Position numbers and translations under genes: made by a program. Below the pieces are notes generated by a model, which saw only the letters and a program-made list of their open reading frames with translations, ran no database searches and was not told where the DNA came from. Shown here piece after piece: positions 11,261 through 61,144 of a DNA stretch of 64,000 nucleotides; position 1 is the stretch's first letter; each line of letters starts with the position of its first letter. This DNA is from Candidatus Aenigmatarchaeota archaeon (GTDB taxonomy: Archaea > Aenigmatarchaeota > Aenigmatarchaeia > QMZP01), in contig JAPLVB010000048.1 in NCBI GenBank assembly GCA_026397335.1, positions 136-64,135 of the forward strand, read 5' to 3'.

Positions 11261-11446
11261 ATGACAGAAAAAATCCAGACGGATCTGAAGGAAAACACAA
11301 ATTTGATTATACCGGGAAGGTGCGAACATATAGATTACTGTGTTAAGTTGAGGGTTGTTACAAAAGACTGTTATGACTGTAAAGAGTGCAGAGCAAAAAA
11401 TACTTTCAGTAAACATGGTTATGGGGAGATTCTCCTGGGGTTCTAG
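11261..11446 (+). CDS. Hypothetical small Cys-rich protein
   Basis: 61-aa ORF with a CxxC..C pattern; weak. Confidence 0.2.
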   Translation: MTEKIQTDLKENTNLIIPGRCEHIDYCVKLRVVTKDCYDCKECRAKNTFSKHGYGEILLGF

Positions 11447-11454
11447 CGAACCCT

Positions 11455-11670
11455 TTACTCTTCCCTGCTGCTTGGCAGGTCTGTGCTCTCTGAAAGCTCC
11501 TCAACGCGCCGCTTGATGAGCCTTTCTATCTCGCTCGAGATTTTCAGCTCCTTCAGGACGCAGAGTGCCTTGAATTTCAGAAAAAGGTCCTTTTCGATTT
11601 CTATGGTGGTAGTTATGGTTTCAGGCTTCTGTTCCGGCTTCTCTTCCTGCTCGTCCTCTTCATGGACCAT
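11455..11670 (-). CDS. Hypothetical small acidic protein (possible ribbon-helix-helix)
   Basis: 71-aa ORF with an acidic N-terminus followed by a helical K/E-rich segment. Confidence 0.25.
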   Translation of the reverse strand: MVHEEDEQEEKPEQKPETITTTIEIEKDLFLKFKALCVLKELKISSEIERLIKRRVEELSESTDLPSSREE

Positions 11671-11772
11671 GGGATTTTCTTGGATTTCGGGTTTAAAAAG
11701 TTAACTATGTAAGGAAAAAGCCTGTTTTTACATAGGGGTATATAAATAGGTTCATATATAAATATAGTTTGT

Positions 11773-11794
11773 ATTGGTGATTGAAGGCGGCGAA
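11773..11794. repeat. Degenerate repeat copy R5: GAAGGCGGC-GAA-GCCGGCTTTT
   Basis: Seen directly; right arm imperfect. Confidence 0.5.
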
Positions 11795-12002
11795 GCCGGC
11801 TTTTCTCCAAGAATCTCCCGGGCGCCTTATAAGGGCGGCTCTTAGTTCTCTCCTTAGCACATGTGAATATGGATACTTACATATCGGTAGAGCATGGCAG
11901 GGTACATACAGCCTACCAGTATCTATCGAGTACGAACGAAAGCGAGAGCAATATCCCCACCTATAGCGGAGCCCCCGCCTCCCGATTGGAACGTGCAGTC
12001 GC

Positions 12003-14279
12003 ATGCGGTCGGGTGGAGGTATGGATAATACGCAAATCAAGGTTGATGAGCCTAGGAAGAATGAATGCGAAGCTTACCGGGTAGTTTTGCTGGACGGGGA
12101 GAGGAAAAAAGGCGAGATCAAAGACGTCAGGATTGTAAGGCTGGGCGGCCCAGAAAATAGGTATGTGAAAAGGGAGCCAGGGAAGGACAAATCGGCGGAA
12201 GGCGCTGCGCAGCGCCTTCAATCGAAGGTCGCGGTTCCTGAAATTCCAAGGGCAGCGGCTGTATCCAAAAAAAAGGGCGGCGTGCGGGTAATAGATTTGA
12301 AGAAGGCTTCCGAGAAGGAGGCCGAGAAGGCGAAAGCGAAAGCGGATTCTAAGGCAGAGGAAGAGAAGCGTCTCAGGCGCGATTTGAACAATTCCATAGC
12401 AGAGGGCTCATTCACAACCGCATCAAGCAGCATAGTAAGCTCCTACTCAACCCCCTTTGCGCTGGCGCTTAATGCCTCCAACTCTGAAATCGGGATTCTG
12501 AATTCCGTCCAGAACCTTGCCGGAATTCTTTCGCAGCTTCCTGGCGCAAGGCTCACAAAAAGCATGACCAGGAAAAAAATCTGGGTAATGTGCACCATCC
12601 TTTCCAGGCTGTTCCTGATACCGCTTATATTCATAGGGCTCTTCGCACCTTCCACAGAGATATGGCTGCTGATAATTCTCCTTGGGATGGTTGGCTTCTT
12701 TAGCAGCATGAGAGGGCCCGCATGGTCAAGCATGATGGGCGACCTCGTGCCTGTGGAAAGGAGAGGAAGATACTTCGGCAAAAGGAACATGATAATAGGG
12801 TTTGCAGGCATGGTTGCCACGCTTGGGGCAGGAGCTGCCGTATTCTACTTTGGGTTTCCTGTGATTTTTGGAATAGCCGTTGTCCTCACTTTCATATCCA
12901 TAATATTCTTTTTGCGCATAAGAGAACCAGAACTTAAACAGGAGAGAGAATATCACTACAGGCTGCATTTCCACCCGAGCGATTTAATCTACCAGATAAA
13001 GACGAACAGAAATTTCGCAATCTTCACCATCTACATGACTGTGGTGAACTTTGGTGTCAATATAGCGTCACCCTTTGCTGCTGTATATATGCTCAAGAAC
13101 CTGGATATAGGTTACGCATGGTTTGCAGTGCTGGTTACAATAGGCGCTCTGGCCCAGCTGCTTTCAATGAAATACTGGGGAAACAGGTGCGACAATTACG
13201 GGAACCGCAAGATCCTTGTGATATCCGGAATCCTGATATGCTTCGTTCCCCTAGGCTACATGCTTTCCACGAATGTTTTCCATCTTATACTCCTGAAGGT
13301 ATATGACGGGTTCGTATGGGGCGCTTTCGACCTGGTGGTGTTCAACTACCTGCTTGCCGTCACGCCTTCAGAGAAGAGGCCCGGATTCGTGGCAAACCAC
13401 AATTTCATTACAGGTGCGGGAACTGTCACAGGGGCGTTATTCGGGGCATTCCTGGCCCAGCAGTTCGAAACAAGCAGCTTCATGCTGTTCTATGGCCTCC
13501 AGCTGGTATTCCTGATATCCTTCATCCTCAGGCTAAGCTCCATATCCTTCCTGTCCAGGATAGCAGAGGTGGAGAAGAAGGAGAGCGAGCGCATTCCTGT
13601 GAGATATGTGTTCTGGGACACGGTTGCAATAGGCCCTGCAAAGGGAGTGGAGCATGCCGTGAGCAGCGCCTTCCGCTACCCTTACGGGGTTAAGATTAAA
13701 AGCAAGCTCGGACTAAATAATAACAGAAAAATAAAGCTCTCAACAAAAAAATTTGAGTCAGGGAACTCGCAAAAGCAGCGAATGAAGGTGAACGAAAGAA
13801 AGAAGGTGGAACTGGAGAACGAGACACCTTCAGGCAATAAGCCACCTTCAATCACAAATCACGTTCCAGCGAAGGTGTTTGATCATATAGGTGTCCTTCC
13901 GGTTAAAAAGCAAAAGATTGCGGGCGGATTCAGTCAAGAAAATGGGGTGTTTGAAATGGTATTAGGCAATAGGCAAAAACAGAAATCTGATGATAGAAGC
14001 GAATATGTTGAGCTTGGACTTGAGAGGCAGGCTCCCAAAACAGCGAAGATAGTGGTTCACCATCTCCAGAGGTTCTCGGAGACGGACAAGATTGTGAAGA
14101 GTATCCGCGCGAAAAACATTGTTTTCGTGGGGCTCAAGACCATGAAGCAGACCAATCTGGACGAGCTCAAGCAGGCAGTCGCAAAGATAAACAGGGCATG
14201 CATAGAGAACGGCTCGAACCTTTCGCTCGTGGAGGAGGAGTGGCTGATAATCACGCCTCAGACGGCGGCGATTGTTTAA
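12003..14279 (+). CDS. Fusion ORF joining a multi-pass (about 10-12 TM) transporter-like membrane domain to a SepF-like (DUF552) cell-division domain. The N-terminal ~187 codons are doubtful and a plausible alternative start is at 12564.
   Basis: The TM-rich core carries a GDLVPVERRGRYFG segment that resembles an MFS loop 2-3 motif, but this is weak. The last ~80 aa (KIVVHHLQRFSETDKIVKSIRAKNIVFVGL...WLIITPQTAAI) match the SepF core pattern. The linker at 13784-13855 contains a degenerate repeat copy. An in-frame ATG at 13782 could start a stand-alone 166-aa SepF if an unseen frameshift or stop exists. Confidence 0.5.
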   Translation: MRSGGGMDNTQIKVDEPRKNECEAYRVVLLDGERKKGEIKDVRIVRLGGPENRYVKREPGKDKSAEGAAQRLQSKVAVPEIPRAAAVSKKKGGVRVIDLKKASEKEAEKAKAKADSKAEEEKRLRRDLNNSIAEGSFTTASSSIVSSYSTPFALALNASNSEIGILNSVQNLAGILSQLPGARLTKSMTRKKIWVMCTILSRLFLIPLIFIGLFAPSTEIWLLIILLGMVGFFSSMRGPAWSSMMGDLVPVERRGRYFGKRNMIIGFAGMVATLGAGAAVFYFGFPVIFGIAVVLTFISIIFFLRIREPELKQEREYHYRLHFHPSDLIYQIKTNRNFAIFTIYMTVVNFGVNIASPFAAVYMLKNLDIGYAWFAVLVTIGALAQLLSMKYWGNRCDNYGNRKILVISGILICFVPLGYMLSTNVFHLILLKVYDGFVWGAFDLVVFNYLLAVTPSEKRPGFVANHNFITGAGTVTGALFGAFLAQQFETSSFMLFYGLQLVFLISFILRLSSISFLSRIAEVEKKESERIPVRYVFWDTVAIGPAKGVEHAVSSAFRYPYGVKIKSKLGLNNNRKIKLSTKKFESGNSQKQRMKVNERKKVELENETPSGNKPPSITNHVPAKVFDHIGVLPVKKQKIAGGFSQENGVFEMVLGNRQKQKSDDRSEYVELGLERQAPKTAKIVVHHLQRFSETDKIVKSIRAKNIVFVGLKTMKQTNLDELKQAVAKINRACIENGSNLSLVEEEWLIITPQTAAIV
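12198..12219. repeat. Repeat copy R6: GAAGGCGCTG-CG-CAGCGCCTTC (perfect 22-nt palindrome) followed by aatcg
   Basis: Seen directly. It lies inside the annotated N-terminal extension of the ORF at 12003-14279. Confidence 0.75.
13784..13855. repeat. Degenerate repeat copy R7 inside the transporter-SepF linker: gaaggtgaacgaaagaaagaaGGTGG...CACCTTC...ccaccttcaatca
   Basis: Near-identical to 24904-24950 (gaaggcgaacgaaagaaagaaggtgcacagcaccttcaatcg). Confidence 0.6.
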
Positions 14280-14595: not shown

Positions 14596-14690
14596 GTGCT
14601 AAATCACCAGCACACCCCACGCAACCAGCGCCTTCTCTATAAGGTTTATGGCTACGGCTGGCCTGTACAGGATTTATAACCTTCTGAATA
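14591..14690 (-). pseudogene. Diverged duplicate (about 75% identity over about 90 nt) of the 3-prime end of the marC-family gene at 15386-15480
   Basis: Direct alignment: gtgctaaatcaccagcac...ccacgc.ac.ag.gc.tt.tctat.agg.ttatggc... appears at both 14598-14685 and 15388-15475. Confidence 0.5.
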
Positions 14691-14713
14691 CTATTTAATT
14701 AATGGAGGCATCC

Positions 14714-15028
14714 ATGAAAAGCAAAGACAAGCTTTATCTTGACAGGGCCTCAATTCTTTCGGTCCTGAAGCAGAACAGGGATATCCTGAGGCAGTTCGGC
14801 CTCAAAAGGATAGGCCTCTTTGGATCCTACCTGAAAGGGGAGAGCAATCCGGACAGCGACATCGACTTCATTGTGGCGTTCAACAAAACCACGTTTGACA
14901 ATTACATGGATCTGAAATTCGCTCTGGAAAGGATTTTCAAGAGAAAGGTGGATCTTGTTATTGAGGGCAGCCTAAAGCCCGCCTTAAAGCATGTGAAAAA
15001 GGAAGCGGCCTATGCCAAAGGAATATAG
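14714..15028 (+). CDS. Minimal nucleotidyltransferase (MNT) of an MNT/HEPN toxin-antitoxin pair
   Basis: GLFGSYLKGESNPDSDIDFIV (GS-x9-DxD Pol-beta NTase motif). Confidence 0.8.
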   Translation: MKSKDKLYLDRASILSVLKQNRDILRQFGLKRIGLFGSYLKGESNPDSDIDFIVAFNKTTFDNYMDLKFALERIFKRKVDLVIEGSLKPALKHVKKEAAYAKGI

Positions 15029-15350
15029 GATCTACCTGGAAGACATACTGAGCTGCATTGGCAATATAGAAGAGTATTCAAAAGGGCTCTCATTCTCACA
15101 GTTCAGCAAAGACCAGATGAGGATAGATGCCGTGATAAGAAACCTGGAGATAATAGGGGAGGCTGTAAAGAAGCTTCCGGACGAATTCAGAAAGGATTAT
15201 CGCGATGTCGAGTGGGCCAAGATATCCGGCCTTAGGGACATACTGATACACGAGTATTTCGGCGTGAACCTGGAAATCATATGGGATGTTGTCTCAAACA
15301 AGATTCCAGACCTCAAGAAGAGCGTGAAGAAGATAATGACAGAGATCTGA
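15012..15350 (+). CDS. HEPN-domain protein (DUF86), partner of the upstream MNT
   Basis: RDILIHEY (R-x4-H HEPN motif). Overlaps the MNT gene. Confidence 0.8.
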   Translation: MPKEYRIYLEDILSCIGNIEEYSKGLSFSQFSKDQMRIDAVIRNLEIIGEAVKKLPDEFRKDYRDVEWAKISGLRDILIHEYFGVNLEIIWDVVSNKIPDLKKSVKKIMTEI

Positions 15351-15397
15351 CGCCTGCCTCATCCTATACCTTTTTCTTTCCTGAAAGCGGAGCGATG

Positions 15398-15991
15398 CTA
15401 AATCACCAGCACGTGCCACGCCACAAGGGCTTTTTCTATCAGGCTTATGGCAATTGCTGCTGTCAGGATTCCCATTATCCTTGTGAAGATTTTCAGGCCG
15501 TTGTGGCCGATTATCTTGACTATGCGCGTGCTGTAGTAGAGGAAGAAAAAGCACAGGAACATCACGAAAAATATGGCTGCCAGGGTGATTTCAGCTCCGT
15601 ATGTGTGCGTGAAGTAGATGGAGGTGGTTATTGCCCCCGGACCTGCAAGCAGGGGAGTGGCAACAGGAACTATCACATCAGACGGGTCCTTTTCCACGCT
15701 TCTTGTCTTGGGAAGCTCTCCCTTGATGAATTCGAACGAGAGGTAAAGGAGCAGGATACCGCCCGCTATCATGAATGCGGGAAGCGAGACGCTCATCCTC
15801 TCGAGGATTGCCGTACCGAAAAGGGAGAAGGCCACCAGAAGGAGGAGGGCAGCTATTGTTGCCTCCAGGGCAGCTTTTTTCTGCTTGGTCCTGTCTGACT
15901 TGCCAAAAAGCACCAGGAATGTCGGTATAGCTATAAGCGGGTCTATTATAACGAACATGGAAACGAAAACGGTGAGGAAATCCAGGGGCAT
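15398..15991 (-). CDS. MarC-family (UPF0056) integral membrane protein
   Basis: About 6 TM segments with an N-terminal FVIIDPLIAIPTFL motif characteristic of MarC/NAAT proteins. Confidence 0.75.
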   Translation of the reverse strand: MPLDFLTVFVSMFVIIDPLIAIPTFLVLFGKSDRTKQKKAALEATIAALLLLVAFSLFGTAILERMSVSLPAFMIAGGILLLYLSFEFIKGELPKTRSVEKDPSDVIVPVATPLLAGPGAITTSIYFTHTYGAEITLAAIFFVMFLCFFFLYYSTRIVKIIGHNGLKIFTRIMGILTAAIAISLIEKALVAWHVLVI

Positions 15992-16039: not shown

Positions 16040-16435
16040 TTGACAGTTAGCGGTGAACTTATGTCAGAATTCAAACTTGTGGAAAAGCCTGAATGGGGAA
16101 CGCTGGCGACATTCATACCAAACAAGGAGGAACCTGTTTACAACTGGATTTATTACAAGGAGGGTTTCGCGAGGGAACTTGTGTTCAGGCTTGCAGAGAT
16201 GTTCTCGCTCAGAAAGGGTATGCACGTGCTGGACCCGTTCTGCGGGGTAGGGACAACCCTTCTCGCGTGCAAGCAGCTGGGCCTGGATTCATTCGGATTT
16301 GATGTGCACCCTGTGAGTGTCTTTTCCTCAAAGGTCAAGATCAGGGATTATGAGACTAGCGTTCTAAGGAGCGAGATAAAGTCCCTTATCAAGGCAAAAT
16401 TCGTCCCAGGGATTTCCTTCTGCTTGGGCTCATGA
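16040..16435 (+). CDS. SAM-dependent amino-methyltransferase, N-terminal part carrying motif I
   Basis: DPFCGVGTT (FxGxGTT SAM-binding motif I). Confidence 0.5.
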   Translation: MTVSGELMSEFKLVEKPEWGTLATFIPNKEEPVYNWIYYKEGFARELVFRLAEMFSLRKGMHVLDPFCGVGTTLLACKQLGLDSFGFDVHPVSVFSSKVKIRDYETSVLRSEIKSLIKAKFVPGISFCLGS

Positions 16436-17109
16436 ATGTGGCTGTCAAATGCAGCTATGCATACAAGGACGGGGCCGTGATAAAGGTGAGAAAGAAGCCG
16501 GTCCCTCCTATAAGAGACATGCTAAGAAGGCAGCTTTTCCATATGGTGAAAGATATTGAGAACTTCAAGTCTGAGAAGTGCGAGACCTTTGCTGATTTCG
16601 GGGATGCGCGCTCTCTTGCGCTCGAATCCGAGAAGATAGATTGCGTGATAACCTCCCCTCCTTACCTTAACAAAATAGAATATACAAAGGTTTATGAGAT
16701 AGAGCAGGAGCTTTTCCTGAACCGCATACAGGAGAGGCCGGCCATCCGCTCTTATATAGGCCTCTCTCTCCAGAGGCTTGAGAAGAACTCCTTGGGCCTT
16801 GAGAAAGCGCTTGATTATGGAACAGTGAGAAGCCTGCCGCCGGAATCAGTACCTTACCTGATGGACATGTTCCAGGCAATAGAGGAGATGTACAGGGTGT
16901 GCAGGAAGGGAGCGAAAATTGGGATTGTCGTAGGTAATGGATGCTTCCCGACAGGAGTGGTAGACTCGGACATACTCCTGAGCAGGATGGCTGAAAGCAT
17001 TGGCTTTACAGTCCAGAAAATCCTTGTCCTGAACAAGCGCTGGTGCACAAGGAACCGGACGGAGAAGATTGGAATAACAAGAGAAAGTCTTCTTCTGTGG
17101 GAGAAATAG
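16432..17109 (+). CDS. SAM-dependent amino-methyltransferase, C-terminal part carrying motif IV
   Basis: VITSPPYLN ((S/D/N)PPY catalytic motif IV). The ATGA overlap with the upstream ORF is in a different frame. Confidence 0.5.
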   Translation: MNVAVKCSYAYKDGAVIKVRKKPVPPIRDMLRRQLFHMVKDIENFKSEKCETFADFGDARSLALESEKIDCVITSPPYLNKIEYTKVYEIEQELFLNRIQERPAIRSYIGLSLQRLEKNSLGLEKALDYGTVRSLPPESVPYLMDMFQAIEEMYRVCRKGAKIGIVVGNGCFPTGVVDSDILLSRMAESIGFTVQKILVLNKRWCTRNRTEKIGITRESLLLWEK

Positions 17110-18481: not shown

Positions 18482-18832
18482 TCATCTCTTACTATCCAAA
18501 TCCCTTTTCAGTTTTAGCATACTGTCTTTCAATTCCGGTATGTCCCTTTGGACAACTTTCCATGTAAGTTCCAAATCAACTCCAAAATACTCGTGTATGA
18601 GGATATCTCTCATACCCGCAATCTCTTTCCATGCAATATCTGGATATTTGTTTTTTATTTCCTTTGGTATATTTTTAACCGCTTCGCCTATAATTTCAAT
18701 TCTTCTTATGACAGCATCCTGTACCTGTTCCGATTCTAAAAAACCATCCTTTGTTATTCCCTTTGTATATTCCTCAATTTTTTCTATGCATTCCAGCATA
18801 TGCTCTATGAAAACTTTCGGATCCTTTTTCAC
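18482..18832 (-). CDS. HEPN-domain protein (DUF86), paralog of the gene at 15012-15350
   Basis: [15 protein letters not shown]; about 50% identity to HEPN copy 1. Confidence 0.8.
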
Positions 18833-19116
18833 ATAATCACTTCCTGCTCGCCAAGAATCCTGTCCCTAAGAAGCGGATGCAGAGAATTATATGTAAGCAC
18901 ATCTACCTCCCTCTTCAGAACCCCCTCAAGCGTTATCTTGAGGCCTGCGAGGTCAAGGAGGCTTTTCTCGCCCCTGAACTCCACAAGCAGGTCTATATCG
19001 CTGCCTTTTTTATTCTCCCCTCTTGCGAATGACCCGAATATCGCTGCCCTTTTGACACCATAACGCTTCAGGACTGGAAGGATCTTTTTCCTTATTTCCT
19101 TATTGTCTTTTTTCAT
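18829..19116 (-). CDS. Minimal nucleotidyltransferase, partner of the HEPN protein
   Basis: [20 protein letters not shown]; its stop overlaps the HEPN start by 4 nt. Confidence 0.8.
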
Positions 19117-24661: not shown

Positions 24662-24682
24662 GAAGTCGGCTCTGCCGGCTTC
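24662..24682. repeat. Repeat copy R9: GAAGTCGGC-TCT-GCCGGCTTC followed by aatcgaaattcg
   Basis: Seen directly; one U.G position. Confidence 0.7.
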
Positions 24683-24822
24683 AATCGAAATTCGTAACCG
24701 ATAGGAGTCAGCCATGAAAATATGTTTTTGTGTAACCGACAAGGAGTTAAATCACATCAAAAACCAGTATGGGCCAAAACATTTATATACCCTTGTGCTA
24801 TAATTATATTAAATAAATTTTT

Positions 24823-24894
24823 AGCGACTGAGCGATTGAAGTCGGCTTCGCCGACTTCGGTCTAAATTCCGGATTCAACAGTCGCTTCAATCGA
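24823..24894. repeat. Nested repeat copy R10: outer AGCGACTG/CAGTCGCT and CGATTGAAG/CTTCAATCG arms enclosing GAAGTCGGC-TTC-GCCGACTTC
   Basis: Seen directly; the outer arms are perfect reverse complements. Confidence 0.8.
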
Positions 24895-24903
24895 AAAAAG
24901 TGA

Positions 24904-24957
24904 GAAGGCGAACGAAAGAAAGAAGGTGCACAGCACCTTCAATCGAGAATCGCCTTC
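24904..24957. repeat. Nested repeat copy R11: outer GAAGGCG...CGCCTTC enclosing GAAGGTGC-ACA-GCACCTTC, with aatcg following both
   Basis: Seen directly; ends 22 nt upstream of the MC1 ATG. Confidence 0.8.
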
Positions 24958-24979
24958 AATCTAAACGCGAGGTGTAAAA

Positions 24980-60043: not shown

Positions 60044-61144
60044 ATGGGTGAAATAAAGCTTGCTATCGCGGGCGTGGGCAACTGCGCCTCTTCCCTTGTG
60101 CAGGGATTCTTCTATTACAAGGACGTTGATTCCAACAATAGGCTCATACCGGGGCTCATGCACAACGTCCTGGGAGGGTATAAAATCTCGGACGTGAAGC
60201 CAGTCGCCGCGTTTGACGTGGACGCGCGCAAGGTCGGGAAGGACCTTTCCGAGGCAATATTCGCGCTTCCCAACTGCACAAAGGTCTTCTGCAAGGATGT
60301 CCCGGACATGGGCGTGTCCGTGATGAAGGCGCCCGTCTTGGATGGCATCGCGGAGCACATGAAAGACTATCCTGAAGATAGGAGTTTCTTAGTCTCCAAA
60401 GACAAGCCTGTGGACGTGGCGAAAGTTCTCAAACAAACTGGAGCAGAAGTGTTTGTTAATTATGTTCCAGTAGGTTCTGAACAAGCTGCACAATACTATG
60501 CACAGTGTGCGCTGGACGCAGGCTGCGCATTCGTGAACTGCATGCCTGTTTTCATAGCCTCTGACCACAAGTGGTCCGAAAAATTCCACCAGGCCGGCCT
60601 TCCAATAGCAGGGGATGACATGAAGAGCCAGCTAGGTGCAACCATTCTGCACAGGACGCTTGTGAAGCTATTCGCAGACAGGGGAGTGAAGATAGACAGG
60701 ACATACCAACTCAACACGGGCGGGAACACGGATTTCCTGAACATGCTGGAACGCTCCCGCCTGAAGAGCAAGAAGCTGAGCAAGACCCGCTCAGTCCAGT
60801 CGCAGCTTCCTGTCCCGCTGGAAGAGGAAAATATACATATCGGACCGAGCGATTATGTGCCCTGGCAGAAGGACAACAAGATATGCTTCATTCGCATAGA
60901 AGGCCGCAAATTCGGGGACGTCCCTCTTGACCTTGAGCTCCGCCTCTCGGTTGAGGATTCTCCGAACAGCGCGGGAGTGGTCATAGATGCAGTAAGGTGC
61001 GCGAAGCTTGCCCTGGACAGGAGCATCTCCGGACCCCTGACAAGCATATCCGCCTACACCATGAAGCATCCGCCCCAGCAGTATCCTGACCCGGTGGCCA
61101 GGCAGATGGTGGAAGAATTCATTAAAGGGGAGAGGGAGCGCTAG
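60044..61144 (+). CDS. myo-Inositol-1-phosphate synthase family protein (archaeal/bacterial short form)
   Basis: N-terminal Rossmann [16 protein letters not shown], a GGNTDF segment and a length of about 366 aa; assigned from memory. Confidence 0.55.

Follow-up and report, generated by a model that had tools for sequence, protein, structure and literature searches.

A 64,000-nucleotide stretch of DNA from a Candidatus Aenigmatarchaeota archaeon (contig JAPLVB010000048.1; hereafter the window) carries on its forward strand a single open reading frame (ORF), at 12003-14279, that joins a permease of the major facilitator superfamily (MFS) to the cell-division protein SepF. Our analysis favours a genuine, maintained gene fusion, in which a permease with 12 transmembrane (TM) helices carries the organism's SepF as a tethered domain, possibly alongside a free form of SepF, and would thereby anchor FtsZ; we give this reading a probability of roughly 60%. 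The original prediction had already described the ORF as a union of a transporter-like and a SepF domain, and the ORF itself, Pfam (MFS_1 plus SepF) and AlphaFold2 modelling all bear this out. The covalent fusion of SepF to a transporter appears to be a new architecture; MFS proteins, SepF and transmembrane partners of FtsZ or SepF are already known separately. A literature search for SepF joined to a transporter, to an MFS protein or in a domain fusion found no description; only an automatic product name in IMG mentions both domains together.

SepF is regarded as the peripheral and ancestral membrane anchor of FtsZ, and in archaea as essentially the sole one (PMC8178401). In archaeal SepF, residues 1-12 make up an amphipathic helix at the N-terminus, and a flexible linker connects it to a dimeric core, which binds FtsZ at its C-terminal peptide; the protein is described as 'fully cytoplasmic', and most archaea encode only one (PMC8178401). 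FtsZ-based division is found in 93% of DPANN genomes (PMC8407392). Links of the FtsZ ring or of SepF to transmembrane proteins include ZipA, EzrA and MapZ, the GlpR-Glp-SepF system of Corynebacterium, and the archaeal CdpA and CdpB (PMC13584725).

Architecture of the fused protein

The frame is unbroken over 758 codons. Because all full-length homologues have MDNTQIK as their N-terminus in the alignment, the second ATG, at 12021, and not that at 12003, is the most likely start. An AlphaFold2 model built with 71 aligned homologues has a mean predicted local distance difference test score (pLDDT) of 76. The gene is divided as follows (dN/dS, ratio of nonsynonymous to synonymous substitution rates; REP, repetitive extragenic palindromic).

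12021..14279, forward strand: fused MFS-SepF coding sequence, 752 amino acids plus stop; the frame is open from 12003
12021..12296, forward strand: N-terminal cytoplasmic extension, residues 1-92, predicted to be disordered (pLDDT <50)
12297..12395, forward strand: Lys/Glu-rich helix running into TM1, residues 93-125; dN/dS 0.14-0.26
12396..13556, forward strand: MFS permease core with 12 TM helices (6+6); dN/dS about 0.1
13557..13745, forward strand: cytoplasmic tail of the MFS part, family-specific and conserved (IPVRYVFWDTVAIGPAKGVEH..FRYPYGVKIKSKLGLNNNRKIKLS); dN/dS 0.06-0.22; also present in MFS-only DPANN relatives
13746..13955, forward strand: disordered linker; its homologue in unfused relatives is the spacer between the MFS gene and sepF
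13779..13871, forward strand: 31-codon in-frame insertion of exactly 93 nt, found in the window only, derived from a composite REP-like element at 13783-13855 and holding the ATG at 13782
13944..13949, forward strand: Shine-Dalgarno-like GGGGTG, 6 nt upstream of the internal ATG
13956..13958, forward strand: internal in-frame ATG corresponding to the ancestral sepF start, aligned with the starts of stand-alone SepF proteins; its product would have 107 residues
13956..14033, forward strand: degenerate membrane-targeting helix (MVLGNRQKQKSD) and short linker (..EYVELGLE..), recognized by alignment as what is left of the SepF N-terminus
14034..14276, forward strand: SepF core domain, supported by Pfam, profile and fold; dN/dS 0.05-0.16

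In the model, residues 1-92 are disordered, residues 93-149 form a helix and residues 672-748 are confidently folded, and residues 541-671 lie mostly below a pLDDT of 50, with disorder called at 541-552, 568-589 and 597-671. This disordered region supplies the flexible linker between membrane anchor and core that is expected of a SepF protein. The soluble stretch from TM12 to the SepF core comprises about 160 residues, rather than the 80 or so first estimated.

The N-terminal extension, whose coding status had been doubted, is open and in frame in all homologues. Its codons 46-92 have a dN/dS of about 1, i.e., they appear neutral, yet they remain in frame, with only in-frame indels among the homologues. 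Long extensions of this kind are a trait of this family of DPANN MFS proteins. In the MFS-only DPANN relatives P0013-P0022 they are Lys/Glu-rich and 130-190 residues long, typical of this DPANN MFS subfamily, and contain the recurring short motifs SSSFKEIVDGEIV and GFRVIENGEYV, the counterparts of which in the window are GGVRVIDLKK and AYRVVLLDGE. Judged by its substitution pattern, the fused ORF is conserved, with purifying selection acting over its full extent.

The permease part

Pfam MFS_1 (PF07690) matches the permease in two stretches with an E-value of 2e-41 and 142 bits, against a cut-off of 33.4. Matches in NCBIfam were to generic MFS models only, with every subfamily model far below its cut-off. 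AlphaFold2 predicts 12 TM helices in the 6+6 arrangement of an MFS protein with pLDDT >90, at the upper end of the 10-12 helices originally proposed, and a central loop at residues 299-329. Structural similarity search using Foldseek placed this part close to solved transporters including NorA, MCT1, VMAT2 and YajR, with a target-normalised TM-score (TMt) of up to 0.84. The transporter matches remain generic, comprising NorA, MelB, AmpG, YajR and, weakly, LtaA.

A motif A-like sequence, G-x-x-x-D-R-x-G-R-R, is characteristic of the TM2-3 and TM8-9 loops of MFS proteins. Here the TM8-9 loop, WGNRCDNYGNRK, is a good match to this motif, and the TM2-3 loop, PGARLTKSMTRKK, is degenerate; both are conserved within the family. 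MFS transporters have both termini in the cytoplasm. In the fused protein the N-terminus, the central loop and the C-terminus of the MFS part are all rich in Lys and Arg, so that a cytoplasmic orientation of both termini is the expected one, by established MFS topology and the positive-inside rule. Its long disordered N-terminal extension and its conserved C-terminal tail are features of the DPANN-specific MFS subfamily to which the permease belongs.

The SepF core and its former membrane-targeting helix

The C-terminal domain is SepF by sequence, fold and descent. The match to the SepF/DUF552 pattern noted at the outset was upheld by Pfam SepF (PF04472) at residues 683-756, with 32.5 bits for the whole protein and 35.7 bits for its C-terminal fragment alone (gathering cut-off, 27 bits). 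In the PDB, a profile built from the sequences of the clade matches the SepF entries 3ZIE, 3ZIG, 3ZIH, 7AL1 and 8HZT; a single-sequence phmmer search of the PDB with the SepF part gave nothing meaningful. AlphaFold2 folds the last 107 residues into a β-α-β-α-α-β-β core with pLDDT >90. In a Foldseek search with this model, the top 23 PDB matches are all SepF structures, with TMt values of 0.76-0.91 and root-mean-square deviations (rmsd) of 1.2-3.0 Å, and come from Bacillus, Corynebacterium, Archaeoglobus, Pyrococcus and Methanobrevibacter. The aromatic residue of the SepF segment ..D/E-E-W-L..TP is retained in the fused clade.

The segment just before this core differs from that of a canonical SepF. 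It aligns with the basic and hydrophobic N-termini of stand-alone proteins (MSIFSRFFKK, MALFKRR and MKFPFFGKKK), the Phe residues of which have been lost. Its hydrophobic moment is 0.14, within a range of 0.10-0.25 for the clade, secondarily unfused relatives included, compared to 0.39-0.55 for three of four canonical neighbours; the fourth, L009 with MKFPFFGKKK, reaches only 0.07. The N-terminal amphipathic helix that characterizes the SepF family is therefore missing in its usual form, the segment being degenerate and also internal in the fusion. From these alignments, the amphipathic membrane-targeting helix of SepF has degenerated in the fused clade. The SepF N-termini of split relatives, MPIGRSRPGG, MQITIGKGRPQG and MQIGRKQANE, are likewise not amphipathic.

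Conservation of the fusion

Searching for homologues yielded a dozen proteins, 601-773 residues long, that carry both Pfam domains, cover 85-99% of the query and share 47-74% BLASTP identity with it, in addition to two distant fused homologues (P0016 and P0041) at 37-39%. Altogether, the fused ORF is present in more than 20 independent assemblies of metagenome-assembled genomes of Ca. Aenigmatarchaeota, a DPANN group, at 37-82% identity. At the DNA level it is unbroken in L001, L002, L005, L011, L084-L090, L092-L094 and L097, which derive from JGI, ENA, NCBI and Logan. In IMG, several homologues bear the automatic product name 'MFS family permease/SepF-like predicted cell division protein'. 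Those nearest to the window (L001, L002, L004 and L084-L086) also share the gene order of the window, in which GatD, HD, GatE, an ATP-grasp gene (-) and a small ORF (-) are followed by the fusion, MarC (-), a DNA methyltransferase and a rhomboid gene (-).

Outside this clade the arrangement is exceptional. Among 1.84 billion cluster representatives, the SepF profile matched 106 proteins, almost all of them stand-alone and 90-150 residues long, and membrane-protein fusions among these 106 occur in this clade only. A word-indexed homologue search with the SepF part gave seven matches, all short fragments, of which the three examined, P0095-P0097, are the separate sepF genes of unfused relatives.

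The linker is maintained as coding sequence

Over the 908 linker codons of 12 fused sequences there is no in-frame stop, where about 62 would be expected, compared to 63 and 61 stops in the other two frames. Its dN/dS is 0.24-0.44 where measurable, and the proportion of nonsynonymous differences (pN) is below that of synonymous differences (pS) in eight of nine pairs. Both observations indicate that the fused frame has been kept open by selection, across divergences at which synonymous sites are saturated. One linker motif, KVFDHIGVLPVKKQKIAGG (13872-13928), is kept across the clade. The linker motif KVFDHIGVLP was considered as a mimic of the C-terminal peptide of FtsZ (NEDQLDDFIDGIF); the two are only vaguely alike, and the idea was set aside.

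The repeat copy reported in the linker at 13784-13855 is real: within the window, 13784-13808 is 96% identical to 24904-24928 (E-value 4e-6), and the whole of 13783-13855 resembles a composite hairpin element at 24905-24955. The surrounding insertion is missing from every other fused homologue, in which homology resumes in the same frame on both sides, and P0001 has a private insertion of its own at another position of the linker. As the 93-nt insertion is absent from all other fused homologues, the fusion predates it. Thus, of the earlier proposal that the fusion arose by exonisation of a repeat, the genuine fusion is upheld by its presence in many assemblies, and the repeat as its creator is rejected. 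The 166-residue SepF proposed to start at ATG 13782 is not supported, since this codon lies inside the insertion; the conserved start at 13956, with its Shine-Dalgarno sequence, gives 107 residues instead, a length close to the 108-114 residues of the stand-alone SepF proteins in relatives.

Origin by fusion and secondary fission

More distant Aenigmatarchaeota (L006-L009), whose MFS proteins are about 41-44% identical to that of the window, display the two genes apart. The MFS gene ends in a stop codon, and a separate sepF of 108-114 codons follows on the same strand, 0.2-0.8 kb downstream. The encoded SepF proteins begin with canonical basic and hydrophobic N-termini (MSIFSRFFKK, MSIFGKFFKK, MALFKRR and MKFPFFGKKK). 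In a neighbour-joining tree of the C-terminal half of the MFS part plus SepF, the fused forms make up one clade with L006-L009 as outgroup. Because MFS and sepF are separate neighbours in the outgroup, the fusion arose from a gene pair, and the simplest history suggested by these sequences is a single old fusion of neighbouring, co-oriented genes. No sepF lies within 5 kb of the MFS genes of P0019 and P0022, the closest relatives with the MFS part only, and the MFS-sepF pair is thus limited to part of the family.

Four contigs closer to the window also have the two genes apart. In L081 (1-1112), L082 (1-513), L083 (1-455) and L091 (1-937), a stop codon follows the MFS tail, and sepF lies in another frame and starts exactly at the conserved Shine-Dalgarno sequence and ATG. 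Three of these contigs are at least two mutations away from a restored fusion and are therefore not products of a single indel error. In the tree, the unfused L081 and L091 are nested within the fused clade, beside the fused L002, which indicates secondary fission. On this phylogenetic evidence the well-sampled sub-lineage of L081 and L091 has re-split the genes, and L082 and L083 have probably done so as well. Orthologues with a stop between the two genes, which had been named as grounds for abandoning the fusion, hence do exist, both in L006-L009 and in these four contigs; they reveal how the fusion originated and reverted, and do not contradict it.

At the opposite extreme, P0016 and P0041 have a very short linker and lack the internal Met, and are thus obligate fusions. 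This family, in which fused, obligately fused and re-split genes coexist and the internal ribosome-binding site has been preserved, is a clean example of reversible gene fusion.

A conserved putative internal translation start

The internal ATG is invariant in the window clade and in the clade of L005 and L087, and is lacking in P0011, P0016 and P0041. Upstream of it, G[GA]GGTG at -12 to -7 is invariant in 14 distinct fused and unfused sequences, and the adjacent codons vary. The two codons involved are always GGG or GAG followed by GTG, compared to a usage in these genes of 29% GGG among Gly codons, 63% GAG among Glu codons and 37% GTG among Val codons. Such fixed synonymous choices show that the constraint acts on the nucleotides. 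A similar motif precedes some other genes of the window, for instance GGGGTGAATTA-ATG at 60044.

The retained Shine-Dalgarno sequence and ATG probably permit translation of a free, anchor-less SepF of 107 residues in addition to the fused protein, as far as nucleotide conservation can tell. They would also account for the return to separate genes in some sub-lineages.

A model for the tethered SepF and its alternatives

With both MFS termini in the cytoplasm, the SepF core would hang at the cytoplasmic face of the membrane on a flexible tether of about 160 residues. We propose that the polytopic permease takes over membrane attachment from the amphipathic helix. By analogy with known SepF proteins, the core would dimerise and bind the C-terminal peptide of FtsZ. 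The Z-ring would thereby be fastened to an integral membrane protein or, equivalently, the transporter would be brought to where the cell divides. Free SepF molecules initiated at 13956 could form pairs with tethered ones.

An extended version of this model, in which one ORF yields tethered and free SepF that dimerise, the permease is the sole anchor of the FtsZ ring, transport is coupled to division and the 5' leader of the mRNA regulates the system, is speculative and as a whole rather doubtful. If it held, a genome-reduced symbiont would physically tie its division site to the transport of precursors for lipids or the envelope, or of nutrients derived from its host.

Several observations weigh against a maintained, tethered FtsZ anchor. 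The unfused relatives L081, L083 and L091 carry the same degenerate SepF N-terminus as the fused forms, so covalent tethering is not strictly required. The Pfam SepF score is 18-36 bits in the fused clade compared to 45-52 bits in canonical neighbours, with the distant fused members P0011, P0016 and P0041 at 18-22 bits and thus below the cut-off, and the usual SepF strand G-D-I-x-G-x-G is replaced by S-N-L-S-L-V-E; given this divergence, the function could be altered. In a weak alignment (16 bits), the FtsZ-contact residues K115, R118 and R130 of Methanobrevibacter smithii SepF do not fall on basic residues. The same alignment finds basic residues likewise missing at these positions in canonical Aenigmatarchaeota SepFs, and it is too weak for contact residues to be read from it. 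Neither a cognate FtsZ, recognizable by its tubulin signature, nor a second SepF was found in the 64-kb window, in the flanks or among loci L001-L083; the only FtsZ among the scanned loci lies in an unrelated Nanoarchaeia locus.

The best surviving alternative is that of two genes in disguise. Its products would be a transporter and a free SepF translated from 13944-13958, with the continuous frame merely a tolerated read-through; it further supposes that the MFS gene lost its stop codon and that the appended SepF has no role of its own. The nucleotide-invariant start signal in fused and unfused sequences fits this view, as do the close relatives with truly separate genes (L081, L082, L083 and L091, three of which need at least two mutations to fuse) and a linker that shares ancestry with an intergenic spacer and puts up with inserted REP elements. 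However, the fused forms are monophyletic and have diverged to about 37% identity, so the frame has long been kept, with the stop-free linker and its excess of synonymous change pointing the same way. P0016 and P0041 have a very short linker with neither internal Met nor Shine-Dalgarno sequence, and with its amphipathic helix decayed a free SepF would be anchorless unless it depended on the permease. We consider this alternative unlikely.

It is also improbable that the domain is a repurposed SepF-like module that no longer anchors FtsZ and instead serves the transporter, e.g., for dimerisation or regulation. The lowered Pfam scores and the changed Gly-rich strand would suit such a change, and the structural matches include YajR, an MFS protein that bears a soluble domain at its C-terminus. 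Against it, the domain descends directly from the neighbouring canonical sepF, is under strong purifying selection (dN/dS 0.05-0.16) and has kept the SepF fold within an rmsd of 1.2-3 Å; moreover, no second SepF was seen at any locus, and most archaea have a single SepF (PMC8178401).

Finally, we reject an assembly or sequencing artefact, i.e., a missed stop or frameshift that joins two genes in this window only, as the original prediction had offered as its alternative: although the neighbouring methyltransferase at 16040-17109 is disrupted relative to its homologues and some relatives have separate MFS and sepF genes, the same unbroken ORF recurs in the independent assemblies from all four sources, and homology runs in one frame on both sides of the window-specific insertion.

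Relation to known systems

The closest counterpart of the C-terminal part is archaeal SepF as known from M. smithii (MsSepF, PDB 7AL1/7AL2) and Haloferax volcanii. The core is homologous, with a Foldseek match to 7AL1, and the logic of membrane anchor, flexible linker and core is the same; FtsZ binding is suggested here by homology. A canonical SepF is a soluble protein of about 110-150 residues, bound peripherally through a 12-residue N-terminal amphipathic helix, whereas here the helix has decayed and the core is attached covalently to a 12-TM permease via about 160 disordered residues.

The overall plan resembles that of E. coli YajR (PDB 3WDO), a 12-TM MFS protein with a small C-terminal cytosolic domain (YAM). 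Both attach to the MFS fold a small α/β domain that is soluble and cytoplasmic; unlike the YAM domain, the appended domain here is a cell-division protein. In connecting the FtsZ ring or SepF to a transmembrane protein, the fusion is comparable to ZipA, EzrA and MapZ, GlpR-Glp-SepF, and CdpA and CdpB. Those tethers are separate, non-covalent partners, mostly with one TM helix or of unrelated folds, whereas the present link is covalent and shares no homology with them. As in 'Rosetta-stone' fusions with reversible fission, neighbouring genes have fused, the downstream Shine-Dalgarno sequence and ATG have been kept, and both states are found among relatives. Internal initiation is here proposed from nucleotide conservation, unlike at known in-frame internal starts.

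Leader, repeats and neighbouring loci

Three further features lie upstream of, or in the first part of, the fused gene.

11738..11758, forward strand: TATA-like GTATATAAATAGGTTCATATA, putative promoter, conserved in the window and in L084, L085 and L086
11966..12110, forward strand: nucleotide-conserved block of about 145 nt across the start codon, CCCCCGCCTCCCGATTGGAA..CCGC-[variable loop]-ATCGGGTGGAGGT-ATG plus about 30 codons
12198..12225, strand not assigned: REP-like hairpin, a 22-nt perfect palindrome GAAGGCGCTGCGCAGCGCCTTC (12198-12219) plus an AATCGA tail, in frame in the variable N-terminal segment

The block at 11966-12110 is near-invariant in eight loci (the window, L001-L004 and L084-L086), whereas synonymous sites are saturated elsewhere in the gene; pS is 0.10-0.37 in codons 1-45 compared to 0.57-0.76 in the MFS part. 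Substitutions within the block have no third-position bias. CCGCCUCCCGAU can form base pairs with the AUCGGGUGGAGG that immediately precedes the AUG, and all REP insertions fall within the predicted loop separating the two. Rfam covariance models gave no relevant match at E<=1 over 11300-12400. RNAalifold predicted stems in the block without covariation or compensatory changes, and the single-sequence z-score of -0.97 is not significant. From its conservation, the block is a candidate cis-regulatory leader acting on translation of the mRNA. The TATA-like sequence might act as the promoter, by inference from its conserved sequence. If it does, the 5' untranslated region (UTR) would be about 250 nt long here and up to about 800 nt in L084. 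A 5' UTR of such length is unusual for compact DPANN genomes.

The perfect palindrome at 12198-12219, correctly recognized from the start, belongs to a hairpin family resembling REP elements or miniature inverted-repeat transposable elements, with the consensus GAAG[GT]YG-loop-CRMCTTC and often a following AATCGA. The strict pattern occurs 13 times in the window compared to 0.14 expected from shuffling, at 907, 3178, 6793, 6838, 12198, 22856, 24666-24960, 27396, 33686, 33782, 57076 and 57561. More degenerate copies were recognized by eye at 11773 (-), at 13783-13855 and in part of the 24666-24960 cluster. The family is confined to close relatives, with a concentration of copies in the long putative 5' UTR ahead of the fusion gene. 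Its hairpins have been inserted in frame repeatedly, in different lineages, in both disordered segments of the fusion protein.

Downstream, the DNA (N6/N4) methyltransferase at 16040-17109 is divided between two ORFs in different frames and lacks about 39 codons compared to the single 386-residue gene of L084-L086; it probably represents a pseudogene or has undergone rearrangement. A toxin-antitoxin-like MNT/HEPN pair (nucleotidyltransferase/DUF86) occupies 14702-15350 and is flanked by 64-nt direct repeats of 80% identity at 14597-14660 and 15396-15459, the second of which overlaps the 3' end of marC. As this cassette is absent at this position in L001, L002, L084 and L086, it looks like an insertion. 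A second, similar MNT/HEPN pair lies at 18482-19116 (-).

Implications

If the tethered SepF functions as proposed, nature would have swapped the amphipathic helix of SepF for a polytopic transporter, and the mode of membrane attachment would be interchangeable. The family would also allow the influence of tether length and type of anchor on Z-ring function to be examined in a natural setting. Moreover, the fusion would reveal an unsuspected, DPANN-specific link from MFS transport to cell division, in organisms whose cell biology is nearly uncharted.

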